19,081 nucleotides of DNA, taken from IMG/VR virus record IMGVR_UViG_2585427764_000003, one strand, 5' to 3'. Shown in pieces: positions 1,210 to 19,081 of the stretch. Numbering within the stretch: position 1 is the stretch's first letter; every line of letters starts with the position of its first letter. Origin of the DNA: a virus. Its lineage: Duplodnaviria > Heunggongvirae > Uroviricota > Caudoviricetes. Position numbers and translations under genes: made by a program. The notes beneath the pieces are model-generated. The model was not told the origin of the DNA and searched no databases. It saw nothing but the letters and a program-made list of their open reading frames with translations.

Positions 1210-1809
1210 TCAGAATTTATAACCGACACCCACGATGAAACCGTCAGTGCGCCAGTCACCACTGCCGGAGCCTTCATAAGCAATATCAATGGCCACGGAT
1301 TCGGTCGGGTTAAACTGCACGCCAGCCCCCCACGCCAGAGACGTGTTGCTGTGGCGACCGTCATCACTTCCGGTCAGCACATCGTGCGTTTTCCCCTTGT
1401 TGTCAGTTACGCGAAGATAATCCCCGGAGAAAGTCGACACACGGCTGTAAGCTACACCCGCCATCGCATACGCGCTGAACCATTCATTCACGCGCACAGA
1501 CGGCCCCGCCATTACGCTGAACCAGCGGTTACGAACGGAATCTTCATGCCAGCGGGTATCGCTGTAACGGGTCAGCTGGCGATTCTTGTCTCCTGCATAG
1601 CTGAATGACGTCACCAGCCCCAGTGTGTCCGTAAACTCATAACGGTATTTCACGTTAATCCCGTTCAGATCATCACTGCCGGGGACGTTCGTCGAGGCAT
1701 GAAGATACCCCGCGCTCAGCGTGGACTGATGTTCAGACGCCCATGCAGGCGCACCGGATACGGCCAGACAAATGGCTGCGGACAAAATTGCTGCACAAAC
1801 TTTACGCAT
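1210..1809 (-). CDS. lom: Lom outer-membrane protein (Ail/OmpX/Lom family), lysogenic-conversion moron
   Basis: 199-aa ORF MRKVCAAILSAAICLAVSGAPAWASEHQ...GFIVGVGYKF with signal peptide and C-terminal aromatic residue typical of beta-barrel OMPs; near-identical to lambda Lom as recalled. SD GAGAGG lies upstream of the ATG. Confidence 0.9.
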   Translation of the reverse strand: MRKVCAAILSAAICLAVSGAPAWASEHQSTLSAGYLHASTNVPGSDDLNGINVKYRYEFTDTLGLVTSFSYAGDKNRQLTRYSDTRWHEDSVRNRWFSVMAGPSVRVNEWFSAYAMAGVAYSRVSTFSGDYLRVTDNKGKTHDVLTGSDDGRHSNTSLAWGAGVQFNPTESVAIDIAYEGSGSGDWRTDGFIVGVGYKF

Positions 1810-1832
1810 AATTACCTCTCGCTTTTCTGCAA

Positions 1833-1857
1833 TAAAAAAGGCGTCATTCCTGACGCC
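1833..1857 (-). terminator. Intrinsic terminator-like hairpin between the J 3' end and lom
   Basis: GGCGTCA(1840-1846), loop TTCC, TGACGCC(1851-1857), flanked by an A-run on the plus strand (U-run on the minus strand, 1832-1839) and CTTTATT on the other side; possibly bidirectional. Confidence 0.55.
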
Positions 1858-1879
1858 CTTTATTGGGGTTATAAATATT

Positions 1880-4800
1880 TCAACGAATACTGATGCCGGA
1901 AGCGGCTTTTTTGGTCACAATCACCGTACAGTCGGTGATATTGCCTGCCCCCTGATTGCCTTTCTGGAAAATCTTAAACTCCAGAGTGACGCTTCCCCTG
2001 CCACTCGGCATATCAATAACTGCACTGTAACTACCGGGAATGGCCCCTTTAGTTTCTCTGGATGCGATTAATACGCCGTTTTTGCGAACTTCAAAACCAT
2101 AACCCGTGTATCGCGTGCCTCCTGGGTTATTTCCGCTCCCCGGATCGTCATACGCTATACCGTTAAAAATAATGGGCGGAATAATAATCTGGCGGTCAAA
2201 GTTATGATCATCGCTGATGGTGACTGTAACCGTACCGTTTGGTGTTTCCGTGTTACCCCACGTACCGACTTTTTTCGGGAAGGCTTTTGATACAGCTTTA
2301 ACGAAATCTCCTCTGACCTGGGTCGCCTCCAGCATGCCCTTAATCGTACAGTTCTGGTTAATCGTGACATTGTTGAGCGTTCCTGAGTTCGCATTCACAC
2401 TGCCACTGATATCCGCATTTTTCGCCGTCAGTCTCCCGTCTGATGTCAGGGAAAATACCGGAGGACTGCCACCGCTGGTAATGGTGGGTGCCGTCAGGCG
2501 TTTCAGGAACACTTCATTCATGAATATCTGATCGCCCTGACCAACAAACATCGGCTTTGTGTTGCCATTCGCAGGATTAATCATCGCAATCCTGTCTGCT
2601 GCCAGCAGCACCTGACTCTGCATGCCGTCAGGGGTGTTCTCAATACTGGGGCCGATACCCGCGATATAATGTTTGCCGTCTTCGGTCTGCTCAATTTTGA
2701 CGCCCCACATGGCATTTTATTTATCGTTGGCGTCTTTCCACTCTTTCGATGACTCGTTTATTCTGCTGGCGTTATCCTCCGTCAGCTCGACTTTTTCCTG
2801 CCCACAGCTCCTGAGCCAGATGGGTTTTCCCTATCTCGCCTTTGAAAAAATCCAGATAGCCTGATGCATCATCACTCGGCTGACCGACAGCCTCCACGAA
2901 TGCCGATTTGCCAACGGTGTTCACACTGCGAACGTAAAAATAATAATCATGGCCCGGTTTGATATTGATACTGGCGGCTATCCAGTACAGTGCCGTACCA
3001 AGATAACGGGCTGTGGTTTCAACCTGCCTGATATCCGCAATCCGCTTTTCCGAGAACCAGAACTCAAACTGTACCGTCGGGTCATAAACGGCAAGATGCG
3101 GCGTGGCGGTTATCTGAAAATAGCCCGGCGTCAGCTCAATCCTCGACGGTGCTGCCGGTGCGGCAATCCGGAACGATACCGACGCCGGATCGCCCTGCTG
3201 CCCCCACGCATTTACCGCCCGGACTGTCAGCCTGTAGTTCCCCAGCGCCAGTTGCGTGAAGCGGTATGTGGTTTCCGTCGTCCGGGCCGTGCTGACCAGC
3301 CGCTCACTGCCGTCATCCGCTGTTACGGTCAGGCGGAGCATGAAGCTCACGCCCTTCACCACCTTCGGCGTGTCCCAGCGGGCCAGCACCTGATATTCCC
3401 CGCTGCCTGCGGTGACTTCGGCGGTCAGGTGCTGCACCGCTGGCGGCGTGACACCATTCACCGTGCCGCTCTGGTCGCCGTCAAAGTGCGCCCCGTTATC
3501 CACGATGGCTTCTTTTTCCGGTACATGCTGCACGGCAGTGATGGCATACGTGCCGTCATCGTTCTCACGGATACTCACACAGCGGAACAGGCGCTGGCGC
3601 AGCGTCGGCAGCTTAAGCCCCCACACGCTGTATTCAGCAACACCGTCAGGAACCCGGCTAACTTTTACCTTCACGCCGTCGGTGACGGACTGGACCTCCA
3701 CGCTGACCGGATTGCCACTTCCGTCAACCAGGCTTATTAGCGTGGTACCGGAGGATGGCAGCGTGATTTCACGGTCGAGCGTCAGCGTCCGGGTCTGGCT
3801 GTTCACAGCTAGCACGCGCCCGCCGATGCTGATCCCCGCATAGTCATCATCGCAGATTTCAATGACATCCCCCGGTACATGGCGAAGCCCTTCCGCACCC
3901 ACGCTGAAGTCCACGGTCTGCGTTTCCAGCAGTTCCGTTTTAATCAGCCACAGCCCGGCGCGGTGCGCCTGCCCCCGTCTGGTACAGCCAAAGGCATCCA
4001 TCTTCGTGACATTACGACCGTAACGGGCAATGGCCTGCGTATCTTCAACAAGCTCTGTCGCCGTCTCCCAGCCGTTGTTCGGGTCAATCCAGTTCACCTC
4101 AACGGCATTATGGCGGTCTTTCAGGGCGCTGAAACTGTAGCGGAACGGCGCGCCATCATCCGGCATCACCACATTACTGCGGTTATAGGCCCACACCTTA
4201 TCCGACGGTCGGTCCTGCACGAACGTCAGCGTCTGCCCGTTCCATACCGGCATACAGCGCATCGCCGAGCAGAAATCACTGAGCACATCCCACGCCTTGC
4301 GCTGTGTGGTCAGGTACGCATTACAGGTGATGCGCGGCTCCGTGCCGCCAAAGCCGTCCGGCACTGACTGGTCGCAGTACTGGCCGATGACATACAGCGC
4401 CCATTTATCCACATCCGCCGCACCAAGACGTTTTCCCATGCCGTAGCGCGGGTGGGTCAGCATATCCCACAGACACCAGGCCATGTTGTTGCTGTATGCT
4501 GGTTTTAACGTTCCGTCCCAGATACCACTGTATTGCCGCGTCTGCGGGTTATAGTTCGACGGCACCTGCAGAATGCGCCCGCGCAGATGATAATTACGGC
4601 TCACCTGCTGGCTGCCGAACTGCTCCGAGTCCACCTGCACGCCGATCAGTGCCGTGTTCGGGTAGCACTGTTTCACATCGATAATTTCGGTGTATGACGA
4701 CCAGAGCGTTTTGTTCTGCAGCTGGTCTGTGGTGCTGTCCGGCGTCATCCTGCGCATCCGGATATTAAACGGGCGCGGCGGCAGGTTATCCACCACCACC

Positions 4801-5297
4801 GAGGCCAGATACTGCGAGGTGGTTTTGCCCTTAATGGTGATGTCTTTTTCCGTCACCCAGCCACCATTACGCTGTATCTGAACCAGCAGGCGGACTTCCG
4901 ATGGATTCCTGTCCCCCTTTGAGGTGGTTTCCACCAGTGCCTGTACACCGAAGGTAAAGCGCAGACGGTCGATGTTTGCCGACGTGATGGTCCGGGTGAT
5001 CGGCGTGTCATATTTCACTTCTGTACCGAGCACCGTCTCGGAGCCGGAGGATTCAAATCCCTCCGGCGGTGTCTGCTCCTGCTCACCGGCCCGGAACACC
5101 ACCGTGACGCCGGATATATTGGTATTCCCCTCACTGTCCAGCACCGGCGTACTGTTCAGCAGCACGCTTTTTAATCCATCCACCGGACCTTCAACCGGCC
5201 CTTCGCTGATGGCATCGATCACACTCAGCAGCTGCGTGGACTTCAGGTTGTCCTTCGCTTCGCGCGGGGTATGCCCCTTACTGCTGCCTTTACCCAT
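1880..5297 (-). pseudogene. J: Tail tip/central fiber host-specificity protein J, disrupted; two ORF fragments 2772..5297 (841 aa, N-terminal) and 1880..2710 (276 aa, C-terminal)
   Basis: N-terminal ORF begins [24 protein letters not shown] (lambda J start). The two fragments are in different frames (top coordinate mod 3 = 2 vs 1). In the downstream frame the sequence reads ...[36 protein letters not shown] with TAA at 2717-2719. An apparent +4 nt insertion lies near 2799-2809. Confidence 0.8.
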
Positions 5298-5357
5298 TCC
5301 TCACGCTCCATAAACGACAAAACCGCCCGGAGGCGGTTTCACATAAAACATTTTGCA

Positions 5358-6029
5358 TCAGCGACCAATCACCACAACCTGACCACCATCCCCTTCGTCT
5401 GCCGTGCTGATCTCCTGAGAAACCACGCGTGACCCCACGCGCATTTCACCGTACAGAACAGGCAGAACATTGCCCTGGGCAACCATGTTATCCAGTGAGG
5501 AGAAATAGGTGTTCTGTTTGCCGTTATCCGTTGTCTGTGTACGGGGAGTTCTGGCTTTCGGTGCAAGCATCTGCGCCACACCACCGAGCACCATACTGGC
5601 ACCGAGAGAAAACAGGATGCCGGTCATACCACCGGCCCCAATGGCTGCCCCCCATGCTGCAAGGGTGGCTCCGGCGGTAAAGAATGATCCGGCAATGGCG
5701 GCTGCTCCCAGGACAATCTGGAATACACCACCTGACTTGGCCCCGGCGACTCTGGGAACAATATGAATCACAGCGCCATCAGGCAGAGTCTCATGTAACT
5801 GCGCCGTTAATCCGGACGTGCTGACATCCTGCCCGGCAATCCGTACCTGATACCAGCCGTCGCTCAGTTTCTGACGAAACGCCGGGAGCTGTGTGGCCAG
5901 TGCGCGGATGGCTTCAGCCCCCGTTTTCACACGAAGGTCGATGCGGCGGCCAAATCGTTGCAAATCCCCGTAAAGGCAGATGCGTGCCATTCCCGGTGAC
6001 GCCAGAGGGAGTGTGTGCGTCGCTGCCAT
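5358..6029 (-). CDS. I: Tail assembly protein I
   Basis: 223-aa ORF MAATHTLPLASPGMARICLYGDLQRFGRR...GGQVVVIGR, same length as lambda gpI; overlaps K by 103 nt as in lambda; 60-nt gap to J as in lambda. Confidence 0.92.
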   Translation of the reverse strand: MAATHTLPLASPGMARICLYGDLQRFGRRIDLRVKTGAEAIRALATQLPAFRQKLSDGWYQVRIAGQDVSTSGLTAQLHETLPDGAVIHIVPRVAGAKSGGVFQIVLGAAAIAGSFFTAGATLAAWGAAIGAGGMTGILFSLGASMVLGGVAQMLAPKARTPRTQTTDNGKQNTYFSSLDNMVAQGNVLPVLYGEMRVGSRVVSQEISTADEGDGGQVVVIGR

Positions 6030-6670
6030 TTGTCGGTGTACCTCTCTCGTTTACTCAGTTGTTCAGGAATATGGTGCAGCAGCTCACCGTCACCACAGTA
6101 AATGGCGGCATGATTCGGCACCGATGAACCAAAACAGCACAGCAGCACATCGCCCGGTTGTGCCGCTGACAACGGCACCTGATACAGCCCTGTGGCCTCC
6201 AGATTATCCAGATAGAGATTCTGACCGTGACGCCACCAGTCATCCTCGCGATGAAAATCCGGCATCTCAATCCCCGCCAGATGATAAGCATCCCGGAACA
6301 GTGTGTAACAGTCCGTCACACCGTGCTCAAAGCGCCGCCCGGTGAGATGCGGCACACAGCGGAACTTATGAATCGTCCCCCGGCAGACCAGCCACCACGG
6401 CAAATCACTCTGCACCTGCAGCCGCCGGTCAGCCTCACTCAGCCAGGGCAGACCACCGGGGTGGCTGTGGACCAGCGCCACAATCTCACCCTGCATTTCT
6501 GCCTGCAGCCAGTCTTCCGGCGACATACGGAAATACGCCTCCGGCTCACCGGAGATATTCACGCAGGGGAAATATCTTTCCCCCTCCGGCGTGCTTACCA
6601 CGAAGCCGCACGACTCCGCTGGCGCACATCGCCGGGCGTGCGCCAGAATCGCTGATTCTGTCTGTGTCAT
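5927..6670 (-). CDS. K: Tail tip assembly protein K (MPN/JAMM-like plus NlpC/P60-like region); start codon uncertain: full ORF 247 codons from 6670, classical 199-codon K would start at the internal Met at 6526
   Basis: ORF MTQTESAILAHARR...; JAMM-type motif HSHPGG...SEAD; C-terminal Cys/His-containing region. The 199-aa version corresponds to lambda K coordinates as recalled. Confidence 0.85.
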   Translation of the reverse strand: MTQTESAILAHARRCAPAESCGFVVSTPEGERYFPCVNISGEPEAYFRMSPEDWLQAEMQGEIVALVHSHPGGLPWLSEADRRLQVQSDLPWWLVCRGTIHKFRCVPHLTGRRFEHGVTDCYTLFRDAYHLAGIEMPDFHREDDWWRHGQNLYLDNLEATGLYQVPLSAAQPGDVLLCCFGSSVPNHAAIYCGDGELLHHIPEQLSKRERYTDKWQRRTHSLWRHREWHASAFTGICNDLAAASTFV

Positions 6671-6675
6671 GGGAT

Positions 6676-7374
6676 TTACTGCGAAAGTTTGTTAATGGAA
6701 AGGAAGCCGCCAAAGTTGCCGACGTTATTGCGGAACTTACAACCGCTCAGGCATTTGCTGCATTTATCCTTCGTGATATCGGACGTTGGCTGGTCATATT
6801 CATCCGCGACAGCCGGACCGCTATAACCGCACTCGTCACCGCGATAGGTCCAGGTGCAGGTGTTAGCCAGCATGATACGTCCCGGAAAAACGGCGCCATC
6901 CGTTTCCGTCGGCGTGGACAGTACAAAGGAGGCACTCACCGCGCTCAGTTCGCTGCACTGCTCAATGCGCCAGCGGCTAATCACCTCCTGCTCCGGATCG
7001 GCGTCGCTGTTTCCGTTGACGAAGTTCACCGCATCCAGAAAACGGGCGTAAACCTTACGCCGGACCACCGTTCCGCCGACCAGACTCTGCATATCTTCCG
7101 CCATCCCGGTGACCATGCCATACAGGTTAGAAACCGTCAGCGTGGGGCGCGTACTGGTGCCTTTGCCATTCAGTTCGAAACCACTCCCCTGAATGGGATA
7201 CGGCTGATACTGTCGCCCCTGCCAGGTGACCGGCTCACCTTTTTCGTTCTGCTCATTACAGAAAAAATAACGTTCTCCACCGACCTCTGTCAGGTCGATT
7301 TCCCATAGCACCACGCTGGCCGACTGCTCCGCACGGGTGCATTCATTCAGTGTTTCCTGCCGGATATCCTGCAT
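6676..7374 (-). CDS. L: Tail tip protein L
   Basis: 232-aa ORF MQDIRQETLNECTRAEQSASVVLWEIDLTEVGGERYFF... with C-terminal Cys cluster (CSKCLSGCKF); length equals lambda gpL; 1-nt overlap with the M stop (TGATG). Confidence 0.92.
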   Translation of the reverse strand: MQDIRQETLNECTRAEQSASVVLWEIDLTEVGGERYFFCNEQNEKGEPVTWQGRQYQPYPIQGSGFELNGKGTSTRPTLTVSNLYGMVTGMAEDMQSLVGGTVVRRKVYARFLDAVNFVNGNSDADPEQEVISRWRIEQCSELSAVSASFVLSTPTETDGAVFPGRIMLANTCTWTYRGDECGYSGPAVADEYDQPTSDITKDKCSKCLSGCKFRNNVGNFGGFLSINKLSQ

Positions 7375-7703
7375 CAGTTCACCACCTGTTCAAACTCTGC
7401 GCTGAACTCAACACGCAGCATACTGACCCGCGACGACCATTTTGCGCAGGTCACCTTTATCTGCCGCCACTCATAAGGCGGTGTCCACAGAAAGGATTTC
7501 CAGCCCCCGTGCTCTTCCAGAAACGACTCCAGTACCGTGGCCTCCTCACGGGGGACAGAAAGCGTCACGCTGTACGTTTTCAGGTTGGCATTCAGCCCGG
7601 CAGGCGCTCGCTGGGAATAGCCATCACCAAAGCGCACCTTTCTTACAGAAGGGACCGAAGCCACATCCATACCGGGTTTCACTTTCCAGCGGAAGGTCTT
7701 CAT
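7374..7703 (-). CDS. M: Tail tip protein M
   Basis: 109-aa ORF MKTFRWKVKPGMDVASVPSVRKVRFGDGYSQRAPAGLNAN...; same length as lambda gpM; ATGA overlap with the H stop. Confidence 0.92.
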   Translation of the reverse strand: MKTFRWKVKPGMDVASVPSVRKVRFGDGYSQRAPAGLNANLKTYSVTLSVPREEATVLESFLEEHGGWKSFLWTPPYEWRQIKVTCAKWSSRVSMLRVEFSAEFEQVVN

Positions 7704-10261
7704 CGTCCACCTCCGGAGAACAGGCCACCATCACGCATCTGTGTCTGAATTTCATCACGGGCACCCTTGCGGGCCATGTCATACACCGTCTTCAGAGCAG
7801 CCGGACCTATCTGCCCGTTCGTGCCGTCGTTGTTAATCACCACATGGTTATTCTGCTCAAACGTCCCGGACGCCTGCGACCGGCTGTCTGCCAGACTGCC
7901 CGGTGTACCGACATAACCGCCGGTGGCATAGCCGCGCATCAGCCGGTAGAGATTCCCCACGCCAATCCGGCTGGTTGCCTCCTTCGTGAAGACAAATTCA
8001 CCACGGTGAACAATCCCCGCTGGCTCATATTTGCCGCCGGTTCCCGTAAATCCCCCGGTCGCAAAATGGAATTTCGCAGCAGCTGCCTGAATGGCTGTAC
8101 CGCCTGACGCGGATGCGCCGCCACCAACAGCCCCGCCAATGGCGCTGCCGATACTCCCGACAATCCCCACCATTGCCTGCTTAAGCAGAATTTCTGTCAT
8201 CATGGACAGCACGGAACGGGTGAAGCTGCGCCAGTTCTGCTCACTGCCGGTCAGCATCGCCGCCATATTCTGTGCAATACCATCAAAGGTCTGCGTGGCT
8301 GCACTTTTAACCTGCGACATACTGTCCGTGGCGCTCTCTTCCCACTCACTCCAGCCGGACTTCAGGCCTGCCATCCAGCTCCCGCGAAGCTGGTCTTCAG
8401 CCGCCCAGGTCTTTTTCTGCTCTGACATGACGTTATTCAGCGCCAGCGGATTATCGCCATACTGTTCCTTCAGGCGCTGTTCCGTGGCTTCCCGTTCTGC
8501 CTGCCGGTCAGTCAGCCCCCGGCTTTTCGCATCAATGGCGGCCCGTTTTGCCCGTTGCTGCTGTGCGAATTTATCCGCCTGCTGCGCCAGCGCGTTCAGG
8601 CGCTCCTGATACGTAACCTTGTCGCCAAGTGCAGCCAGCTGGCGTTTGTACTCCAGCGTCTCATCTTTATGCGCCAGCAGGGATTTCTCCTGTGCAGACA
8701 GCTGGCGACGTTGCGCCGCCTCCTCCAGTACCGCGAACTGACTCTCCGCCTTCCACAAATCCCGGCGCTGCTGGCTGATTTTCTCATTTGCTCCGGCATG
8801 CTTCTCCAGCGTCCGGAGTTCAGCCTGAAGCGTCAGCAGGGCAGCATGAGCACTGTCTTCCTGACGATCGCCCGCAGACACCTTCACGCCGGACTGTTTC
8901 GGCTTTTTCAGCGTCGCTTCATAATCCTTTTTCGCCGCCGCCATCAGCGTGTTGTAATCTGCCTGCAGGATTTTCCCGTCTTTCAGTGCCTTATTCAGTT
9001 CCTCCTGACGGGCGGTATATTTCTCCAGCGGTGTCTGCAGGCGTTCGTAAGCCTTCTGTGCCTCTTCGGTATATTTCAGCCGTGACGCTTCGGTATCGCT
9101 CTGCTGCTGCGCATTTTTGTCCTGTTGACTCTGCTGCTCAGCCTTCTTTCGGGCGGCTTCAAGCGCAAGACGGGCCTTTTCACGATCATCCCAGTAACGC
9201 GCCCGCGCTTCATCGTTAACAAAATAATCATCCTTGCGCAGATTCCAGATGTCGTCTGCTTTCTTAAACGCAGCCTCTGCCTTAATCAACATCTCCTGCG
9301 CGGTATCAGGACGACCAATATCCAGCACCGCATCCCACATGGATTTGAATGCCCGCGCTGTCCTGTCTGCCCAGGTCTCCAGCGTGCCCATGTTCTCTTT
9401 CAGGCGGCGGGTCTGGTCATCAAACCCTTTCGTCGCGGCCTCGTTCGCCGCCTGCAATGCCCCGGCTTCTTCGCCGGAACGCTGCAACTGAGCAACATAC
9501 GCAATCTGCTCCGCCGTCACGTTATGGAACTGGCGCGCCATCGCTGTCAGCCCCGACGTCGGGTCAGTGGTCAGCTTCCCGAAGGCTTCAGCGACCTTGT
9601 CCACCTCCACGCCGGATGCAGAGGAGAAACGCGCCACACTCTGGCTGATGGACGCAATCTGAGCCTCACCGCTTACCCCCGCCTTAACCAGTGCGCTGAG
9701 TGACTCGCTGGTCTGGTTAAACGTCAGCCCTGCCGCCTGCCCGGCTCTGGACAGGACCAGCATACGATCTGCCGTCAGCCCGGCCTGATTGCCGGAAAGG
9801 ACCAGCGTTTTGTTGAAATCGGACAGGGTTGAGTTGCCCTGATACCAGGCATACGCCAGCGCACCGGTCGCCACCGCCAGCGAGGTGGCCCCGACCATCG
9901 GCAGGGTGATCGCACCGGCAAGCACCCTGAACATGGGGATCATCCCGCCGAAGGAGTCCTTCACCTGACCCCCCTGTTGCAGCAGGATCAGCCACGGACT
10001 CTGCTCGCCTGCAAGCTGCGTGGCCACGTCGGTGAACTGCGCAGGCAGCATACGCATGGCGGCTTTATACTGCCCGACGGAAATTCCCGCTTTCTGTGCA
10101 GCCAGCGCCTGCCGGTTCATCGACTGTTCAACGACTGCCGCTGTTTTTTTCGCATCACTTTCCGTACCGGAAAAATGACGCCTGACTCTGGCCATCTGCT
10201 CGTCAAATCTGGCCGCATCCAGACTCAAATCAACGACCAGATCGCCTACCGGTTCAGCCAT
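7700..10261 (-). CDS. H: Tail tape measure protein H
   Basis: 853-aa ORF MAEPVGDLVVDLSLDAARFDEQMARVRRHF... with long coiled-coil central region and Gly-rich C-terminus; same length as lambda gpH. Confidence 0.93.
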   Translation of the reverse strand: MAEPVGDLVVDLSLDAARFDEQMARVRRHFSGTESDAKKTAAVVEQSMNRQALAAQKAGISVGQYKAAMRMLPAQFTDVATQLAGEQSPWLILLQQGGQVKDSFGGMIPMFRVLAGAITLPMVGATSLAVATGALAYAWYQGNSTLSDFNKTLVLSGNQAGLTADRMLVLSRAGQAAGLTFNQTSESLSALVKAGVSGEAQIASISQSVARFSSASGVEVDKVAEAFGKLTTDPTSGLTAMARQFHNVTAEQIAYVAQLQRSGEEAGALQAANEAATKGFDDQTRRLKENMGTLETWADRTARAFKSMWDAVLDIGRPDTAQEMLIKAEAAFKKADDIWNLRKDDYFVNDEARARYWDDREKARLALEAARKKAEQQSQQDKNAQQQSDTEASRLKYTEEAQKAYERLQTPLEKYTARQEELNKALKDGKILQADYNTLMAAAKKDYEATLKKPKQSGVKVSAGDRQEDSAHAALLTLQAELRTLEKHAGANEKISQQRRDLWKAESQFAVLEEAAQRRQLSAQEKSLLAHKDETLEYKRQLAALGDKVTYQERLNALAQQADKFAQQQRAKRAAIDAKSRGLTDRQAEREATEQRLKEQYGDNPLALNNVMSEQKKTWAAEDQLRGSWMAGLKSGWSEWEESATDSMSQVKSAATQTFDGIAQNMAAMLTGSEQNWRSFTRSVLSMMTEILLKQAMVGIVGSIGSAIGGAVGGGASASGGTAIQAAAAKFHFATGGFTGTGGKYEPAGIVHRGEFVFTKEATSRIGVGNLYRLMRGYATGGYVGTPGSLADSRSQASGTFEQNNHVVINNDGTNGQIGPAALKTVYDMARKGARDEIQTQMRDGGLFSGGGR

Positions 10262-10688
10262 ACCGGACTCCTCCTGCGATCCCTTCTGATACTGTCATCA
10301 GCATTACATCATCCTCCGTCATGTCCGCCACATCCGGGGAAGCGGGGATAACTTCATTCCCGTCCGGGCCAAAACGAACGCCTCCGGCAAGCCCTGCCGC
10401 TTTCTGCATCAGCACATCATCTTCAGGCTCTTCGTCAGCCTCACGCCGGTTCAGCAAACTGAAATCCAGCGGATGCATATCCGGATCGCTGAAAAACAGG
10501 CTGAGCACGGTGTACGTCAGCCCGGAAAAGTGCATATCCAGCAGAACATCATGAAAATAATGGGTACTGTAAAAGCGGTGCCAGTCGGCATACTCCGTGG
10601 ATGACATCCCGGCAAGCATGGCACGCCAGTCGGGTCGCCCCATCTCACGCGCCAGTTTCAGGGCAAAACTCAGCTCACCGTCGAACAC
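10254..10688 (-). CDS. T: T segment of the tail assembly chaperone G-T fusion (expressed only via programmed -1 frameshift from G)
   Basis: ORF (V)FDGELSFALKLAREMGRPDWRAMLAGMSS... starts at the slippery site and overlaps the H start by 8 nt as in lambda. Confidence 0.85.
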   Translation of the reverse strand: MFDGELSFALKLAREMGRPDWRAMLAGMSSTEYADWHRFYSTHYFHDVLLDMHFSGLTYTVLSLFFSDPDMHPLDFSLLNRREADEEPEDDVLMQKAAGLAGGVRFGPDGNEVIPASPDVADMTEDDVMLMTVSEGIAGGVRYG

Positions 10689-11092
10689 TTTCCCGCAGAA
10701 ACAGGCTCTGCAGGCCCGGCGTCCTCTGCCTGTTCAGGGGCATCATTCACCACAAACTCATACATACCGGACAGCCGGTACACCACGTTTTCAGCATGAG
10801 AAATTGCCTCTGTGGGCCAGGTGGTAAGCACTTCCTGCTCAATCTGTTTAACGGCTTCATTCATGGACGGCATCTGCGTCTTCTGCGGATGGTTATGCCA
10901 CAGGGACATCGCCACCAGAAACGCGCCGGTTCTGATGGCGTCTTCCACAGTAAACTTCCGGTTGCTGTCTGACTCCGCCTGTTCTGCCTGCCGTTTCATC
11001 AGGGCGAGATGCTCAATGCGCTGCAGGGCTGACAGTTCAGAAAGCGTGACGGTCACACCGTTATGTTCAAATGATTCGGTTTTCAGGAACAT
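10670..11092 (-). CDS. G: Tail assembly chaperone G
   Basis: 140-aa ORF MFLKTESFEHNGVTVTLSELSALQRIEHLALMKRQ...AGKCSTVS; same length as lambda gpG; 15-nt gap to V as in lambda. Confidence 0.92.
   Translation of the reverse strand: MFLKTESFEHNGVTVTLSELSALQRIEHLALMKRQAEQAESDSNRKFTVEDAIRTGAFLVAMSLWHNHPQKTQMPSMNEAVKQIEQEVLTTWPTEAISHAENVVYRLSGMYEFVVNDAPEQAEDAGPAEPVSAGKCSTVS
10688..10694 (-). other. Programmed -1 ribosomal frameshift slippery heptamer GGGAAAG (G to G-T)
   Basis: Plus strand CTTTCCC at 10688-10694 is GGGAAAG on the minus strand, located 5 codons before the G stop codon, exactly where the T frame opens. Confidence 0.8.
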
Positions 11093-11107
11093 CGCTGACT
11101 CTCCGGA

Positions 11108-11848
11108 TTAACTGTCGGTGACGGTGATTTCTGCAACCACAGCAAGTTCACCATTACCGGATACAACCGGAATGTTGACCTTGCCTGCAGCAACACCTTT
11201 CACGGTGATGGTCATACCACTGACCGACACGGTGGCTTTTGTTTTATCCGCAGACACCGCACGAAAGCTCTTGTCGGTTACGCCCTCCGGCTGGAAGGCC
11301 ACGGTCAGCGTGGTGCTCTGCCCTTTCACCACCGAGGTGCTGGCAGGCGTCACGGTCATGCCGGTTGCCGCTGTTACCGTGCTGCGATCTTCTGCCATCG
11401 ACGGACGTCCCACATTGGTGACTTTCACCGTGCGGGTGATCACTTCCTTCGCCGTCACCGCCTTACCGATACTGCTGACCCAGCCACGGAACACATCGAC
11501 CGTGCCGTTCGGGAAGCGGATTTTATAGGCACGGGTATCCCCTTCATTAAACCACGCCAGCAGCGCCTGCTGCCCCTGCTCTCCGGGCATCCACGCCAGC
11601 GTGAAGCTGGTATCTCCGGCAGATTTCTGCCCCTGCCCGGTCGCAGTCCAGTCCGCATCTTCATCATCGAGATAGCTGTCGTCATAGGACTCAGCGGTCA
11701 GTTCGCCGGGCGTCAGGTCTTTAACTTTAGCCAGACGCGACCAGTCAACGTCTGAAAGCGGGTTCGCATAAGGGTCACCGTTCCCCTTATAAACCCACAG
11801 TGTGGTCCCGGCCCCTTTCACCGGCATTACTGGATTTGGTACAGGCAT
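11108..11848 (-). CDS. V: Major tail tube protein V (with C-terminal Ig-like domain)
   Basis: Product from [22 protein letters not shown]... (246 aa). The ORF-track start at 11878 is an upstream in-frame extension that would overlap U; a start at 11848 gives the 7-nt U-V gap seen in lambda. Confidence 0.9.
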
Positions 11849-11855
11849 ATCGTCC

Positions 11856-12251
11856 TCACATTTCATAGGTAATGACATAAGTCAGATCGGCTGAACTCCA
11901 CAGGCCCGCATCATCGTCGCGCCGGTAGTCATAGCCACTGGCCACCATACTGGTGATCAAATCTGACAGTGCCGGGACATCGCTCATCACCGGATAAATC
12001 CGGGACTCCATCCACGAATCCAGCTCTGAATCCGGCACCTGAGCAGGCAGGAAAACTTCAATATGCAGCTCCGCCTGCCAGGTATCGCTGTCCAGCTCTT
12101 CGCCCGTGTATTCAGCGCCGGTGAGATAAACGGCAATTGCCGGAAAATCCGCCTCATCAAAAACAGCGGGGCGACCATCAAAAAGCGTCGCCCCGGTGTC
12201 ATGCTTCTCCAGTGCATCCAGTACGGCTGCACGGAGTTCAGTATGTTTCAT
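11856..12251 (-). CDS. U: Tail terminator protein U
   Basis: 131-aa [51 protein letters not shown]...; same length as lambda gpU. Confidence 0.92.
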
Positions 12252-12826
12252 CGCTTTATTACCATTCTCAGTTGATGCTGCAGCGCATAGCCCAGCTCTT
12301 TCGGAAGACGTTCACGCCGTATCCGCTCAATATTTTGTTTAAACGCCGTGGTCAGCGGCACCGCCATCGGGATTTTCACCACATCAATGGGGTAACGGTT
12401 TTTCCCGGCCACACGCTGCATGACATGCCACCGGCCATTTTTCAGTTGCTGAATAAACGCGCCGGGAATACGACGGTTACCCACCACAAGCACGCTGCCG
12501 CCACCTTTCAGGGATGAACGCTGCCCCTTTTTACGACGCCTGCGGCGCGAAAGGACAACCCGCGCATTACCCAGCTTGATTACGGGCAAATCCCCCCGGT
12601 TAACTTTGATTCTGGCCTGCGGATTTTTGACCGTGGCCCTTTTCAGCCTGGCCCTTTCCTTTACCAGTTTCCGGCGTACCTTTGTCTCACGGGCAACCTG
12701 TGACGCCGACTGCGATATCGCGGATGAAGCAACGCGGTTAATGGCCATTGCGGCGGCACCAGGCACCGCCGTTTTGCTGATACGGCTGAGGTTTTCAACG
12801 GCCTGCTCAAGACCTTTTATGGCCAT
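12248..12826 (-). CDS. Z: Tail completion protein Z
   Basis: 192-aa ORF MAIKGLEQAVENLSRISKTAVPGAAAMAINRVASS...; same length as lambda gpZ; ATGA overlap with U. Confidence 0.92.
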   Translation of the reverse strand: MAIKGLEQAVENLSRISKTAVPGAAAMAINRVASSAISQSASQVARETKVRRKLVKERARLKRATVKNPQARIKVNRGDLPVIKLGNARVVLSRRRRRKKGQRSSLKGGGSVLVVGNRRIPGAFIQQLKNGRWHVMQRVAGKNRYPIDVVKIPMAVPLTTAFKQNIERIRRERLPKELGYALQHQLRMVIKR

Positions 12827-12837
12827 ACATCCCCCTT

Positions 12838-13191
12838 TCAGCGGCGACGGTTAACGGCAGGCGGCACGCCACGCCCAAGCCAGAGATGACAGCTTCCGCC
12901 ATCATCCGGCGAAATCCGGTCCACCCAGAAGTTTTCCTCGCCGATGGTCAGTGTGTCTCCACGCCGCAGCTGCCGCACATCATCAGTCCGGACAAACAGG
13001 GACGGGCTGGAGCCTTCAACGCGCACCCCCTGTCCGGCATAGCTGATATTTTCAGGGTCATCAAAAACACCACGTATCACAGCACCGGACAGCTCACCGG
13101 ATGTCATGGTGGCTGACGTTCCCATGTACCCGCGTATCGTTTCATCGGCGCGGGCAATGGCAGCATCGAACAGGTTATCGGAATCAGCCAC
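12838..13191 (-). CDS. FII: Head-tail connector protein FII
   Basis: 117-aa ORF MADSDNLFDAAIARADETIRGYMGTSATMTSGE...GRGVPPAVNRRR; 11-nt gaps on both sides as in lambda. Confidence 0.92.
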   Translation of the reverse strand: MADSDNLFDAAIARADETIRGYMGTSATMTSGELSGAVIRGVFDDPENISYAGQGVRVEGSSPSLFVRTDDVRQLRRGDTLTIGEENFWVDRISPDDGGSCHLWLGRGVPPAVNRRR

Positions 13192-13202
13192 AGCGCCTCC
13201 CG

Positions 13203-13598
13203 TTATTGCATTCTGGCCAGGCCATGTTCTGTCATTTCGGCTGCCACACCGGCAGAGACACGAAACGCCGTTCCCGGCAGCACAAATGCCACAGCCTCAT
13301 CCCGCGTGGCGTGAAGTGCATCAGTATGCAGCGTCACCAGTGCCACGACCGTGACCAGAGCAGCCGTATCAATCACGGTATCCGGCTGCGCTGATACCAC
13401 CTCATTTTCATGTCCGGTCAGCGCATTTTCCGGGCTGACAGATGTGTCCTGACCAGCAGCGTCATCCGTGTCATCAAGCTCCTCTTCCAGCTCTGCCACA
13501 CGGAGTGCCAGTTCTTCTTTCGTCCCCGTCAGGCTGACATCACGGTTCAGTTGCTCACCCAGCACCTGAAGACGGGCAATCAGTTCATCTTTCGTCAT
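13203..13598 (-). CDS. FI: DNA packaging / head completion protein FI
   Basis: Product from MTKDELIARLQVLGEQLNRDVSLTGTKEELALRVAELEEELDD... (132 aa). The ORF-track start at 13637 is an upstream extension; a start at 13598 gives the 41-nt E-FI gap of lambda. Confidence 0.88.
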   Translation of the reverse strand: MTKDELIARLQVLGEQLNRDVSLTGTKEELALRVAELEEELDDTDDAAGQDTSVSPENALTGHENEVVSAQPDTVIDTAALVTVVALVTLHTDALHATRDEAVAFVLPGTAFRVSAGVAAEMTEHGLARMQ

Positions 13599-13639
13599 AG
13601 ACTCCTCCACAGAGAGAAAATGGCCCCGAAGGGCCATGA

Positions 13640-14665
13640 TTACGCCAGTTGTACGGACACGAACGCATCAGGGTCAGCCAGCAGCATCAGCGGTGCTGAC
13701 TGAATCATGGTGAACTCACGCGCCGGATCGCCGGTGGTCACCCAGTTTTTCGGGTAGCGGGCAGAGGCGTTAATACCTTCGCGCTGTGCGTCCGCATCCT
13801 GAATGCAGCCATAGGTGCGCAGACCGCGTGCCTGAGTGTTCCCCAGCACCATCGTGTTGTCCGGAAGGAAGTTCTTTTTGACGTCGTTTTCCACGTACTG
13901 TCCGGAATACACGACGATCGCCGTATCGCCATACATCCCCTTATAGGACACCGCTTCGCCCAGGTCTTTTACCGCTGTCTCCAGCTCGGAATTAGAGCCG
14001 CGACGGGTATCCAGCTTCTCCTTGACGGCTTTGAAGGAACGGAACAGCGCCCAGCCTTTCGGATCAAACACGATGATATTCACCACTCCGCTGGCGTTCA
14101 GCGCATAGGCTTCGATATCGTCGGTCGGGTCATACGTGGACTTGTCACGCTTGCTCCACTCCGTACCACCGGACTGTGTGATGTTGTTCGCCGCACTGCG
14201 GCCCATATCCACCTCAACCGGATCGAAGGCTTCACCGGTCATGGTGTATTTGCCCTTAAGCACAGCAGAAACTGCCTGCATCTCTTCGACCTGAGCAATG
14301 GCCAGCTCTTCGTCTCGCATGTTCTGCATGATGATGCGACGGCGGCGGTAAGCCGGGTCCGCCAGATTCTGCGGATCTTCATCCGGCAGGCGACGCAGGG
14401 TCATCTGCGGATTCACCTCATGCTTCGGCTTGACATATCCCGGTGTAAATTCAGAGGTGGAGCCGCCACGGGAGCGGATAACCTCACCGGAAACAATCGG
14501 CGAAACGTACAGCGCCATGTTTACCAGTCCCGGAATTTGTGAGAGATAGACTTTCTCCGTGGTGAAGGGATAGCTCTCACGGAAAAAGAGACGCAGAAAC
14601 AGCGGATCAAACTTAAATTTCTTCTCATTTGCCGCCAGCAGCTGGGCGGTTGTGTACATCGACAT
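13640..14665 (-). CDS. E: Major capsid protein E; own ATG at 14663-14665, but the reading frame is open upstream into C (no stop between C and E)
   Basis: 341 codons MSMYTTAQLLAANEKKFKFDPLFLRLFFRESYPFTTEKVYLSQIPG...DPDAFVSVQLA, near-identical to lambda gpE as recalled. Forms the 3' part of the 830-codon track ORF 13640..16132. Confidence 0.9.
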   Translation of the reverse strand: MSMYTTAQLLAANEKKFKFDPLFLRLFFRESYPFTTEKVYLSQIPGLVNMALYVSPIVSGEVIRSRGGSTSEFTPGYVKPKHEVNPQMTLRRLPDEDPQNLADPAYRRRRIIMQNMRDEELAIAQVEEMQAVSAVLKGKYTMTGEAFDPVEVDMGRSAANNITQSGGTEWSKRDKSTYDPTDDIEAYALNASGVVNIIVFDPKGWALFRSFKAVKEKLDTRRGSNSELETAVKDLGEAVSYKGMYGDTAIVVYSGQYVENDVKKNFLPDNTMVLGNTQARGLRTYGCIQDADAQREGINASARYPKNWVTTGDPAREFTMIQSAPLMLLADPDAFVSVQLA

Positions 14666-15977
14666 AAAAAAATCCCGTAAAAAAAAGCCGCACAGGCGGC
14701 CTTTAGTGATGAAGGATGCCGGGTTACCTGCAGCCAGCGGTGCCGGTGCCCCCTGCATCAGACGATCCAGCGCAGTGTCACTGCGCGCCTGTGCACTCTG
14801 TGGTGCAGCTGCCAGAATGCGGCGGGCCGTTTCCACGGTCATACCGGGGGTTTCTGCCAGCACGCGGGCCTGTTCTTCGCGTCCGTGAGCCTCCTCACAG
14901 TTGAGGATCCCCATAATGCGGCTGTTTTCTGCCGCAACCGCAGCGGTGATCTGCGCGTTCACGTCCGGCTGCGCCGCGCTGGCGTTTTCGCCCTCCGTCG
15001 CTGGCACCACGTCAGTAACGTCAGTCTGCGAAGCAGTGGCTGAAACAGTTGTTGATTGAGTCTCTTTGGTCATTCGCCCTCCTGAGAGACGGGATTTACG
15101 CGCATCCAGTGCATCACGCATGACGGTGATCGCATCGGTGCTGTTAACAAGTTCATCAGCCAGTCCGACATCAATGGCCTCCTGACCGCTGTACACTGCA
15201 GCCTCGGTATCCAGCACAGCCTGCACAGACAGGCCGGTATATGCCGACACCTTCTGCGCAAACATCTGGCGGGTTGCGTCCATCCGGGACTGCAGTGTCT
15301 CCCGGACGTCATCCGGAAGATGGCTGTAGGGATTGCCATCCACCTTATGGCTGCCGCTGTAAATCAGCGTGATTTCCACCCCCTGTTTCTCCAGGGCAGC
15401 ACCGTAATTACTGTGAGCCATCATGACGCCGATGGAGCCTGTCCGGGCGGTCTGCGTGACCAGACGCCGGGAGGCGGCACTGGCAAGCAGCTGACCTGCA
15501 CTGCAGTTCATGTCGTTGGCCAGCGCCCATACCGGTTTTATGTCTCGCACACGGGCGATGATGTCAGCGCAGTCAAATGCCCCCGCCACCATTCCGCCTG
15601 GCGTGTCCATATCGAGCAGAATGCCGTCCACCATCGGGTCGCTGGCAGCCTGTTGCAGACGGGCGATAATGCCGTTGTAACCGGTCATCCCCGAGTACGG
15701 CTGCAGCGCCCGCGTCCGGCTGACCAGCGTGCCGGACACCGGCAGCACGGCGATGCCGTTCATGACCTGATAACTGCGGGCCTGTCGTGGCCCGTCATCA
15801 TTACCGGATAACGCCAGCGTCGCGGGTGCCTCTCCGGCAGTCAGGCTGTCACCGGACACCGCATCCGTCAGGCGGCTGATCCCCAGCTGGCCTGCAAGCG
15901 CACAAAAGAAAACCCGCGCATAGGCGGGTTCAAGCATCAGCGGCTCATTAAAGGCCATACTGGCAATATGCGGGAGA

Positions 15978-15997
<20 letters not shown>
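14666..15997 (-). pseudogene. C: Head protease/minor capsid protein C with embedded scaffold Nu3, 3'-truncated (about 428 of 439 codons, no stop) and fused in frame to E through a 16-codon linker
   Basis: GTG start at 15995-15997 preceded by SD AGGAGG; 20-nt overlap with the B stop as in lambda; product VTAELRNLPHIASMAFNEPLMLEPAYARVFF...APLAAGNPAS then FITKGRLCGFFLRDFF then MSMY (E). The interval between C start and E start is 1332 nt here versus 1717 nt in lambda as recalled. Confidence 0.8.
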
Positions 15998-18594
<2,597 letters not shown>

Positions 18595-19081
18595 TTTAAA
18601 CCGTCTGGTCTGTTTCCTCCGGCTCTACAAAAATAATGTCCATCATTTTTAATGGACACTATCGTATGAAACACCGGACCTGGATCACTGAAGCTTTACG
18701 TCTTCACTTTGAAGAACATTTACCCCGGGTTGTGGCCGGGCGTCGCCTGGGTGTACCAAAATCAACAGTTTGTAGTATGTTCGTGCGCTTTCGGAGAGCT
18801 GGCCTTTCGTGGCCTTTGCCCGCAGGCATGTCGGAGCAGGAACTTGATGCCTGCCTTTACGGACAATTTTCCACGGTACCAGTCGTACGTCCTGAAAGCA
18901 CCGTTATATCCGAAGCCCCCGTGGTAAAAAAACGTCCCCGGCGGCCCAACTTCCCTTATGAGTTTAAAATCGCCTTAGTGGAGCAGTCACTGCAGCCCGG
19001 AGCCTGTGTGGCGCAGATCGCCCGGGAAAACGGAATCAACGATAACCTGCTCTTCAACTGGCGCCATCAATACCGGAAAGG
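18595..19081 (+). mobile_element. Partial insertion-sequence-like element (left end and start of transposase gene); continues beyond the window; family not determined
   Basis: Lambda homology on the minus strand stops at about 18590-18640; immediately beyond lies a plus-strand ORF with a transposase OrfA-type HTH signature. Exact terminus and inverted repeat could not be defined from the sequence alone. Confidence 0.55.
18666..19081 (+). CDS. Transposase OrfA-like HTH protein, N-terminal part (ORF open at window end)
   Basis: Frame from ATG 18666 is open to 19081: MKHRTWITEALRLHFEEHLPRVVAGRRLGVPKSTVCSMFVRF...KKRPRRPNFPYEFKIALVEQSLQPGACVAQIARENGINDNLLFNWRHQYRKG. The segment EFK..V..S..PG..V..IAR..G.....LF.WR.QY resembles IS3-family (IS2 InsC-like) and IS66-family TnpA HTH domains. 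Not in the ORF track because it has no stop in the window. Confidence 0.6.
   Translation, partial: MKHRTWITEALRLHFEEHLPRVVAGRRLGVPKSTVCSMFVRFRRAGLSWPLPAGMSEQELDACLYGQFSTVPVVRPESTVISEAPVVKKRPRRPNFPYEFKIALVEQSLQPGACVAQIARENGINDNLLFNWRHQYRK

Follow-up and report, generated by a model that had tools for sequence, protein, structure and literature searches.

A 386-bp deletion fuses the protease/scaffold and capsid genes of a lambda-like Escherichia coli prophage, probably as a by-product of prophage decay

Several groups of tailed phages encode protease, scaffold and capsid protein in a single gene. In gp5 of Pseudomonas phage MD8 (693 aa) and its relatives, the protease/scaffold part matches lambda gpC by HHpred (PMC8508860), and single protease-scaffold-capsid genes are also present in Microbacterium phages of Cluster EE, for example gp5 of BurtonThePup, and in other small actinophages (PMC7302621). 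Further phages with such single-gene fusions are the Arthrobacter AN, AX and FE phages, the Gordonia CW and DM phages and Rhodococcus RRH1 (PMC8508860; PMC7302621). In HK97 and T5 the scaffold forms an N-terminal (delta) domain on the capsid protein itself (PMC5155283, PMC8508860). In lambda, the full-length genome is not stably packaged when gpD is missing (PMC3185693, citing Sternberg and Weisberg 1977). The covalent C-E adducts X1 and X2 of lambda are now treated as possible artefacts after unsuccessful attempts at their identification (PMC3224144, citing Medina et al. 2010).

Here we describe a lambda-like prophage of E. coli 6-537-08_S3_C2 in which protease, scaffold and capsid protein form a single uninterrupted ORF, as seen from Pfam domains and translation. 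The DNA analyzed, hereafter the window, is the whole 19,081-bp contig JORX01000030.1 of draft assembly GCA_000713415.1; a literature search with the isolate name gave no match. The order of parts, protease followed by scaffold followed by HK97-fold capsid protein, is the same as in the MD8-like and actinophage fusions. However, those genes are conserved across viable phage groups, in which they are the sole capsid gene, and encode a capsid domain of Mu- or HK97-like type, whereas the fusion in the window is a one-off in a dead prophage, has a lambda-E-like capsid domain and, unlike its counterparts, keeps a separate start for E. The coordinates of all features are collected in Table 1.

Table 1. 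Features of the chimeric gene and of the damaged neighboring genes in the 19,081-bp window
Feature	Position	Strand	Basis or remark
C-E chimeric ORF, 785 aa + stop	13640..15997	(-)	gpC(1-428) + 16-aa linker + gpE(1-341)
gpC part, residues 1-428	14714..15997	(-)	98.1% identity to lambda gpC (tblastn)
Nested Nu3 (scaffold) frame, residues 1-190 of 201	14714..15283	(-)	tblastn
Linker FITKGRLCGFFLRDFF, 16 codons	14666..14713	(-)	D-E intergenic spacer, translated
Complete gpE CDS + stop codon	13640..14665	(-)	97.9% identity to lambda gpE, residues 1-341
Deletion junction, one C assignable to lambda 5700 or 6086	14715..14715	(-)	BLASTN and base-by-base comparison
D-E spacer hairpin resembling a terminator (stem GGCCGC / GCGGC, loop CTGT), then T-run	14679..14704	(-)	RNA folding
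Portal gene B, broken	15981..17578	(-)	One G lost at ~16662; ORF ends after 306 aa
Terminase large-subunit gene A, 3' part (lambda residues ~370 to 641)	17778..18582	(-)	BLASTN, tblastn; cut by insertion element
IS66-family element end, tnpA side; contig stops inside element	18583..19081	(+)	
Tail-tip gene J, broken into two ORFs (841 and 276 aa)	1880..5297	(-)	4-nt insertion and in-frame TAA

The ORF listing gives this frame as 830 codons (13640..16132, minus strand), counted from the first upstream GTG. The 45 codons upstream of GTG 15997 do no more than overlap the last stretch of the portal gene, and it is GTG 15997 that is equivalent to the lambda C start, in the same Shine-Dalgarno context as in lambda. 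From this start the gpC part runs to ...PLAAGNPAS and differs from lambda gpC at eight positions (42, 55, 58, 66, 260, 277, 325, and 389). A Peptidase_S49 domain (PF01343) covers residues 150 to 297 of the chimera with 150.5 bits against a Pfam gathering cut-off of 24.9, and the motif NCSAG within it holds Ser166, which we take to be the nucleophile serine of lambda gpC. The native gpC C terminus, which is shared with Nu3, and the stop codon of C are gone from the chimera, the 11 residues DAVNDLLNTPV being deleted. The internal Nu3 ATG (15283) sits in the same context as in lambda. The gpE portion (MSMYTT...VSVQLA) matches Phage_cap_E (PF03864) over chimera residues 449 to 783 with 238.1 bits, spanning profile positions 1 to 328 of 329. 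E's own ATG (14665) and the upstream sequence ACGGGATTTTTTT are still present, and the 30 nt before this ATG match lambda save for a run of eight T residues (T8) in place of seven (T7). The in-frame fusion thus leaves every catalytic and structural domain of C and E intact, an observation that runs counter to decay.

BLASTN comparison of the reverse-complemented window with lambda returned two collinear blocks, lambda 1832-5700 (98.3% identity) and lambda 6086-18471 (96.7%), which abut at window position 14715. Base by base, the window reads ...CCCGGCATC|CTTCATCACTAAAGG... at the junction, and the junction-spanning sequence is GGCATC|CTTCATCAC. The missing segment is 386 bp long and corresponds to lambda 5701-6086 or, equally, to 5700-6085, with a microhomology of 1 nt; an identical 386 bp is missing when E. 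coli 101EVA, the closest complete relative, is taken as the reference. Given the lambda coordinates (C 4418-5737, Nu3 5132-5737, D 5747-6079, E 6135-7160), the loss comprises 11 codons at the end of C/Nu3 with the C stop, then the C-D spacer, the whole of D, and 7 nt past D. A tblastn search with lambda gpD found no D homolog anywhere in the window, which also disposes of the idea that D had moved to another place within it. The absence of gpD is shared with D-defective mutants of lambda, but in these C, Nu3, and E remain separate normal genes.

A first-pass annotation of this DNA, made from sequence and lambda coordinates, had described much of this arrangement, and most of its description stands: the 830-codon ORF with C from GTG 15997, the 16 linker codons and a complete E; the lambda positions of C, D, and E, which agree with the reference, so that a C-to-E distance of about 1332 nt is not a feature of lambda as well; the loss of about 11 C/Nu3 codons, the C stop, D, and a few nucleotides; the derivation of the linker from retained sequence upstream of E; and the survival of the E start codon with its upstream sequence. 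The microhomology check that it had proposed gave the single shared nucleotide reported above, and the D homolog whose presence in the interval it had named as contrary evidence was not found there by tblastn. Two of its statements needed amendment. The deletion of about 385 bp is right as a net change, the distance from C start to E start being 1332 nt in the window (-385 bp), but the event itself removed 386 bp and the remainder is a T7/T8 difference, as both the lambda and the 101EVA comparisons show. The one-gene protease-scaffold-capsid polypeptide holds as a 785-aa ORF, but a Nu3-E product of 547 aa is predicted as well.

The T7/T8 difference lies in the T-run that follows the spacer hairpin, which has eight T residues in the window (14679-14686) and seven in both lambda and 101EVA. 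On a T7 background the 386-bp deletion would be out of frame, and the C-E fusion frame therefore depends on the eighth T. The T8 allele is also carried by a prophage of strain Z1002 that has D, and about one-third of the best matches among complete E. coli genomes have a 647-bp span in place of 646 bp, which agrees with T8. Since T8 is thus a preexisting natural allele of D-containing prophages, one deletion suffices for the fusion, and the parental prophage most likely carried T8 beforehand. The phase shared with the E ATG is open across the 49-nt leader, and there is a stop in one of the other two phases. An in-frame and open fusion has, by our estimate, odds of roughly 1/3 x 0.5, or ~15%; with a phase chance of about 1 in 3 for a random deletion that ends in this spacer and with 16 random codons remaining open about half of the time, the in-frame result is unremarkable. 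Seen from the other side, a neutral lesion would give an in-frame fusion in only this minority of cases, which is a point counter to decay. Chance is not at issue for the deletion itself because the deletion rests on direct comparison with thousands of relatives.

The linker is a translated terminator-like hairpin with its T-run. Folding of 81 nt of RNA containing the hairpin gave -20.9 kcal/mol (z = -2.0). A terminator scan of the window omitted it, the rule of the scan being one that extends the stem into the T-run.

We searched for the C-E junction with a 52-nt query that has 26 nt on each side, less than the 28-nt megablast word, so that seeding is possible only across the junction. None of 5,426 complete E. 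coli genomes contains the junction, the query giving there just six 28-nt matches, all to the C side, and it was found in none of 50,697 phage records, nor in GTDB species-representative genomes, JGI metagenome contigs or IMG/VR viral contigs. Among the same 5,426 genomes, 3,039 have both flanks with D in between. The closest complete relatives, the prophages of 101EVA and T43, match the window at 99.7% identity across 5.4 kb, and their genes Nu1, A, W, B, C, D, and E are all intact and in the same order. An exact-protein look-up placed the 785-aa fusion on this one contig only. The fusion is thus not conserved among related phages or prophages in any of the collections searched, and the combination of intact relatives at 99.7% identity with a junction absent from these collections argues that the deletion is recent and private to one lineage. 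An origin in an engineered lambda vector or a laboratory D deletion was considered and rejected, as the DNA is 96.7 to 98.3% identical to lambda versus 99.7% to wild prophages and the strain is a wild isolate.

A junction known from a single draft contig could also be a product of assembly, the 386-bp gap being absent from the real chromosome and created, for example, by the collapse of several lambdoid prophages in the draft. The window is a complete 19-kb draft contig with repeats at both ends (an IS66-family element and a tail-fiber gene), each of its lesions is unique to it, and an E. coli genome can hold up to 5 to 8 copies of the head region. The junction flanks, however, are clean and 99.7% identical to the intact relatives, and the breakpoints share one base, which gives a k-mer or overlap assembler no common stretch by which to bridge the two sites. 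Comparable deletions are moreover found in independent data sets, as described below. We therefore regard an assembly artefact as unlikely and consider a real deletion in the chromosome of this strain further.

The rest of the head module is damaged as well. An IS66-family element breaks gene A, for the large terminase subunit, and the portal gene B carries a -1 frameshift that changes lambda AAAGGCTGA to AAAGCTGA; a search for sister genomes with the exact truncated portal protein led back to this contig only. The portal frameshift has a GGGAAAG heptamer, the one also found at the G-T slippery site, but its phase does not suit a canonical -1 shift, and we take it as a coincidence. The 4-nt insertion and the TAA that split J both sit in an aberrant stretch of ~130 nt (about 2669-2802) whose best match among complete E. 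coli genomes is 86.5%. This stretch looks like a mix of two J alleles, and it makes local consensus errors in the assembly conceivable. Intact by tblastn are W, FI, FII, and the genes from Z through I. The regulatory region, Q, the late promoter and the remaining genome lie outside the window, and with them whatever bears on expression or on complementation in trans.

Damage to terminase, portal, D, and J alike would leave the prophage unable to produce infectious particles, irrespective of the fusion. The first-pass annotation had called the head module almost certainly nonfunctional on the strength of the C-E lesion and the loss of gpD, whose role in stabilizing fully packaged heads is established (PMC3185693, citing Sternberg and Weisberg 1977); with the frameshift in B and the IS66 interruption of A, the case is stronger than it claimed. 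Two points on which it drew for context have held up less well. X1 and X2 were presented as normal lambda biology, a view now in doubt (PMC3224144). Both these adducts and the product of the window are covalent C-E polypeptides, but X1 and X2 were proposed to arise posttranslationally from processed fragments, whereas the joint in the window is genetic. The description of the module as unusual in form was overstated given the natural single-gene fusions of other phages (PMC8508860, PMC7302621) and the C::E, C::L, and C::U chimeras that we report next.

We compared the 785-aa fusion with 1.84 billion representative proteins and inspected the best 150 matches, at 230 bits or more. No natural full-length protein joining C-like and E-like domains was among these 150. 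A word-indexed protein collection clustered at 90% identity files the fusion under a 341-aa gpE representative, where near-identical fusions would stay hidden. The matches do include other chimeras of the same genes: P0017 is C(1-385)::E(242-341), on a 5.8-kb contig that is heavily deleted elsewhere too; P0019 is C(1-~430)::L(75-232); P0020 is C(1-417)::U(13-131); and P0025 and P0029 are C and E with internal deletions. Like the fusion in the window, the C::E, C::L, and C::U chimeras are deletion products of the sort known from decaying lambdoid prophages of E. coli, but they are truncated remnants, whereas the partners in the window are near complete (428/439 and 341/341 residues) and retain the full protease-scaffold-capsid architecture. 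Chimeric ORFs formed by deletion in these head genes thus arise repeatedly as by-products of prophage decay, or now and then of assembly.

Taken together, these data make it probable that the in-frame C-E fusion is a by-product of decay in this lambda-like prophage. Several independent inactivating lesions are present in essential neighbors (A, B, D, and J), and near-identical relatives, 101EVA and T43, have kept the intact ancestral order. A single illegitimate and essentially homology-free deletion of 386 bp would have taken the end of C/Nu3 together with the C stop, D, and the 7 nt after D, so that the C frame now reads through the spacer into E without a stop codon and a chimeric gene is created. 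Transcription of the late operon, if there is any, would yield a predicted gpC-linker-gpE protein of 785 aa (84.8 kDa). As the internal Nu3 start is intact, a Nu3-linker-gpE protein of 547 aa (59.7 kDa) is also predicted, and the retained E start would give plain gpE of 341 aa. Since heads would be impossible with a frameshifted portal, IS66 in terminase A and no D, the chimera is best seen as an unselected, pseudogene-like remnant.

The chimera could instead be a functional gene, expressed as a protease-scaffold-capsid polyprotein that either self-assembles or acts in a dominant-negative manner on the heads of superinfecting lambdoid phages. The fusion is in frame, its S49 domain, Ser166 and Nu3 start are intact and E is full length, and the tail genes from Z to I are intact too. 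The one-gene design works in other phages (PMC8508860, PMC7302621), and HK97 and T5 have their scaffold built into the N terminus of the capsid protein (PMC5155283, PMC8508860), an arrangement that the predicted Nu3-linker-E product would resemble, with the protease likewise encoded upstream. The delta domain of HK97 and T5, however, is an evolved one that is removed by the protease, whereas the Nu3 part in the window is without its last 11 residues and the linker, merely the translated hairpin and T-run, has no known cleavage site. The head module around the fusion is not otherwise functional, portal, terminase, and J being broken in the same prophage and D absent. The junction is known from one contig only, no natural full-length protein with C-like and E-like parts is among the best 150 matches in 1.84 billion representatives, and flanks that are 99.7% identical to those of intact relatives leave almost no time for selection. 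Nothing in the evidence points to selection or function of the fusion, and we consider such a function very improbable. The more specific case, in which the chimera is expressed, for example through Q from a superinfecting phage, and gpC-E or Nu3-E co-assembles into shells or blocks incoming lambda-like heads, is likewise very improbable. If expression and co-assembly did take place, the locus would be a natural snapshot of genes like MD8 gp5 arising in one deletion; if the expressed product were dominant-negative, it would be a defense built from a broken head gene against incoming lambda-like phages.

Read as ordinary prophage decay, the C-E chimera represents one more decay route for lambdoid prophages and no new biological system. 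It also illustrates that an automatic annotation, here 'clp protease family protein' for a 785-aa product (GenBank KEN18741.1), can conceal a chimeric pseudogene. Because one deletion turns the lambda protease/scaffold, decoration, and capsid genes into the one-gene form, a single mutational step separates the two architectures. The chimera may therefore serve as a natural one-step model for the origin of protease-scaffold-capsid polyprotein genes such as those of MD8-like phages and small actinophages, and it is a ready-made construct for asking if lambda gpE tolerates a covalent scaffold, as HK97 and T5 do.

The positions of the two breakpoints offer a further observation. In the intact sequence the left breakpoint is the center of the palindrome GGCATC-T-GATGCC, and the right breakpoint is 11 nt upstream of the spacer hairpin. 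A deletion mediated by microhomology or repeats was discarded, as one base is shared at the junction and the CATC/CATC match close by lies off the junction actually used. The breakpoint positions are compatible with help from secondary structure in the deletion, which on these positions is suggestive only.

The portal gene B carries a lesion of its own. A single G has been lost, so that lambda GGGAAAGGCTGA reads GGGAAAGCTGA here, and this one-nucleotide deletion cuts the portal protein to 306 amino acids. The heptamer GGGAAAG lies immediately upstream of the lesion and is identical to the G-T slippery site at window position 10694. We considered this heptamer as a canonical −1 frameshift site, for which the phase is wrong, and we regard its presence at the lesion as a coincidence.

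Features of the window outside the C-E fusion
Feature	Position (nt)	Strand	Remark
Region diverging from lambda, 3′ of J	1-2326 and 1210-1809		
Tail-tip gene J	1880-5297	minus	
Aberrant stretch of ∼130 nt within J	2669-2802	minus	
T-run 3′ of the D-E spacer hairpin	14679-14686		T8
Portal gene B	15981-17578	minus	lesion at ∼16662
IS66-family element, tnpA side	18583-19081		inserted in terminase gene A, ∼codon 370

The tail-tip gene J is also interrupted. Compared to lambda J, 4 nt have been inserted into the aberrant stretch and a TGG of lambda is replaced by an in-frame TAA; J is thereby broken into open reading frames of 841 and 276 amino acids. No near match to this stretch was found in 5,426 complete Escherichia coli genomes, the top full-length identity being 86.5%, while the sequence flanking it is at least 99% identical to that of strain 101EVA, the closest complete relative. 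The stretch resembles a mixture of two J alleles, which could stem from genuine mosaic decay or from an error in the local consensus of the draft assembly.

Beyond this stretch, the C-terminal portion of J shares only 57% identity with its lambda counterpart and the Lom-like gene only 46% with lambda Lom, and the contig end falls inside a gene for the N-terminal part of a tail fibre (stf). The divergent region past J is 99.7 to 100% identical to other E. coli prophages (C2, STEC309, and 101EVA), which is ordinary lambdoid mosaicism.

The contig also terminates within the IS66-family element, so that Nu1, cos, and the 5′ portion of A are not necessarily lost and may be located on a different contig. 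The exact junction between A and the insertion element was absent among the best matches in complete E. coli genomes.

Rearranged sequences were also encountered outside the window. A 5,758-bp Logan contig (SRR25477397) holds an independent, extensively deleted lambda-like head/tail region encoding, in order, a portal fragment, a C(1-385)::E(242-341) fusion, a 68-amino-acid FI fragment, a shortened tape-measure gene, M, and L. The search of representative proteins with the 785-amino-acid fusion returned an 844-amino-acid database protein composed of lambda H(1-387), the region upstream of C, and complete C, all 100% identical to the lambda parts; the protein stems either from laboratory lambda that has been rearranged or from a public data set that was assembled incorrectly.

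The T-run beyond the D-E spacer hairpin, a homopolymer adjoining a terminator-like hairpin within the late operon, varies in length among E. coli lambdoid prophages, with T7 in lambda and 101EVA and T8 in the window and in strain Z1002, whose prophage still contains D.
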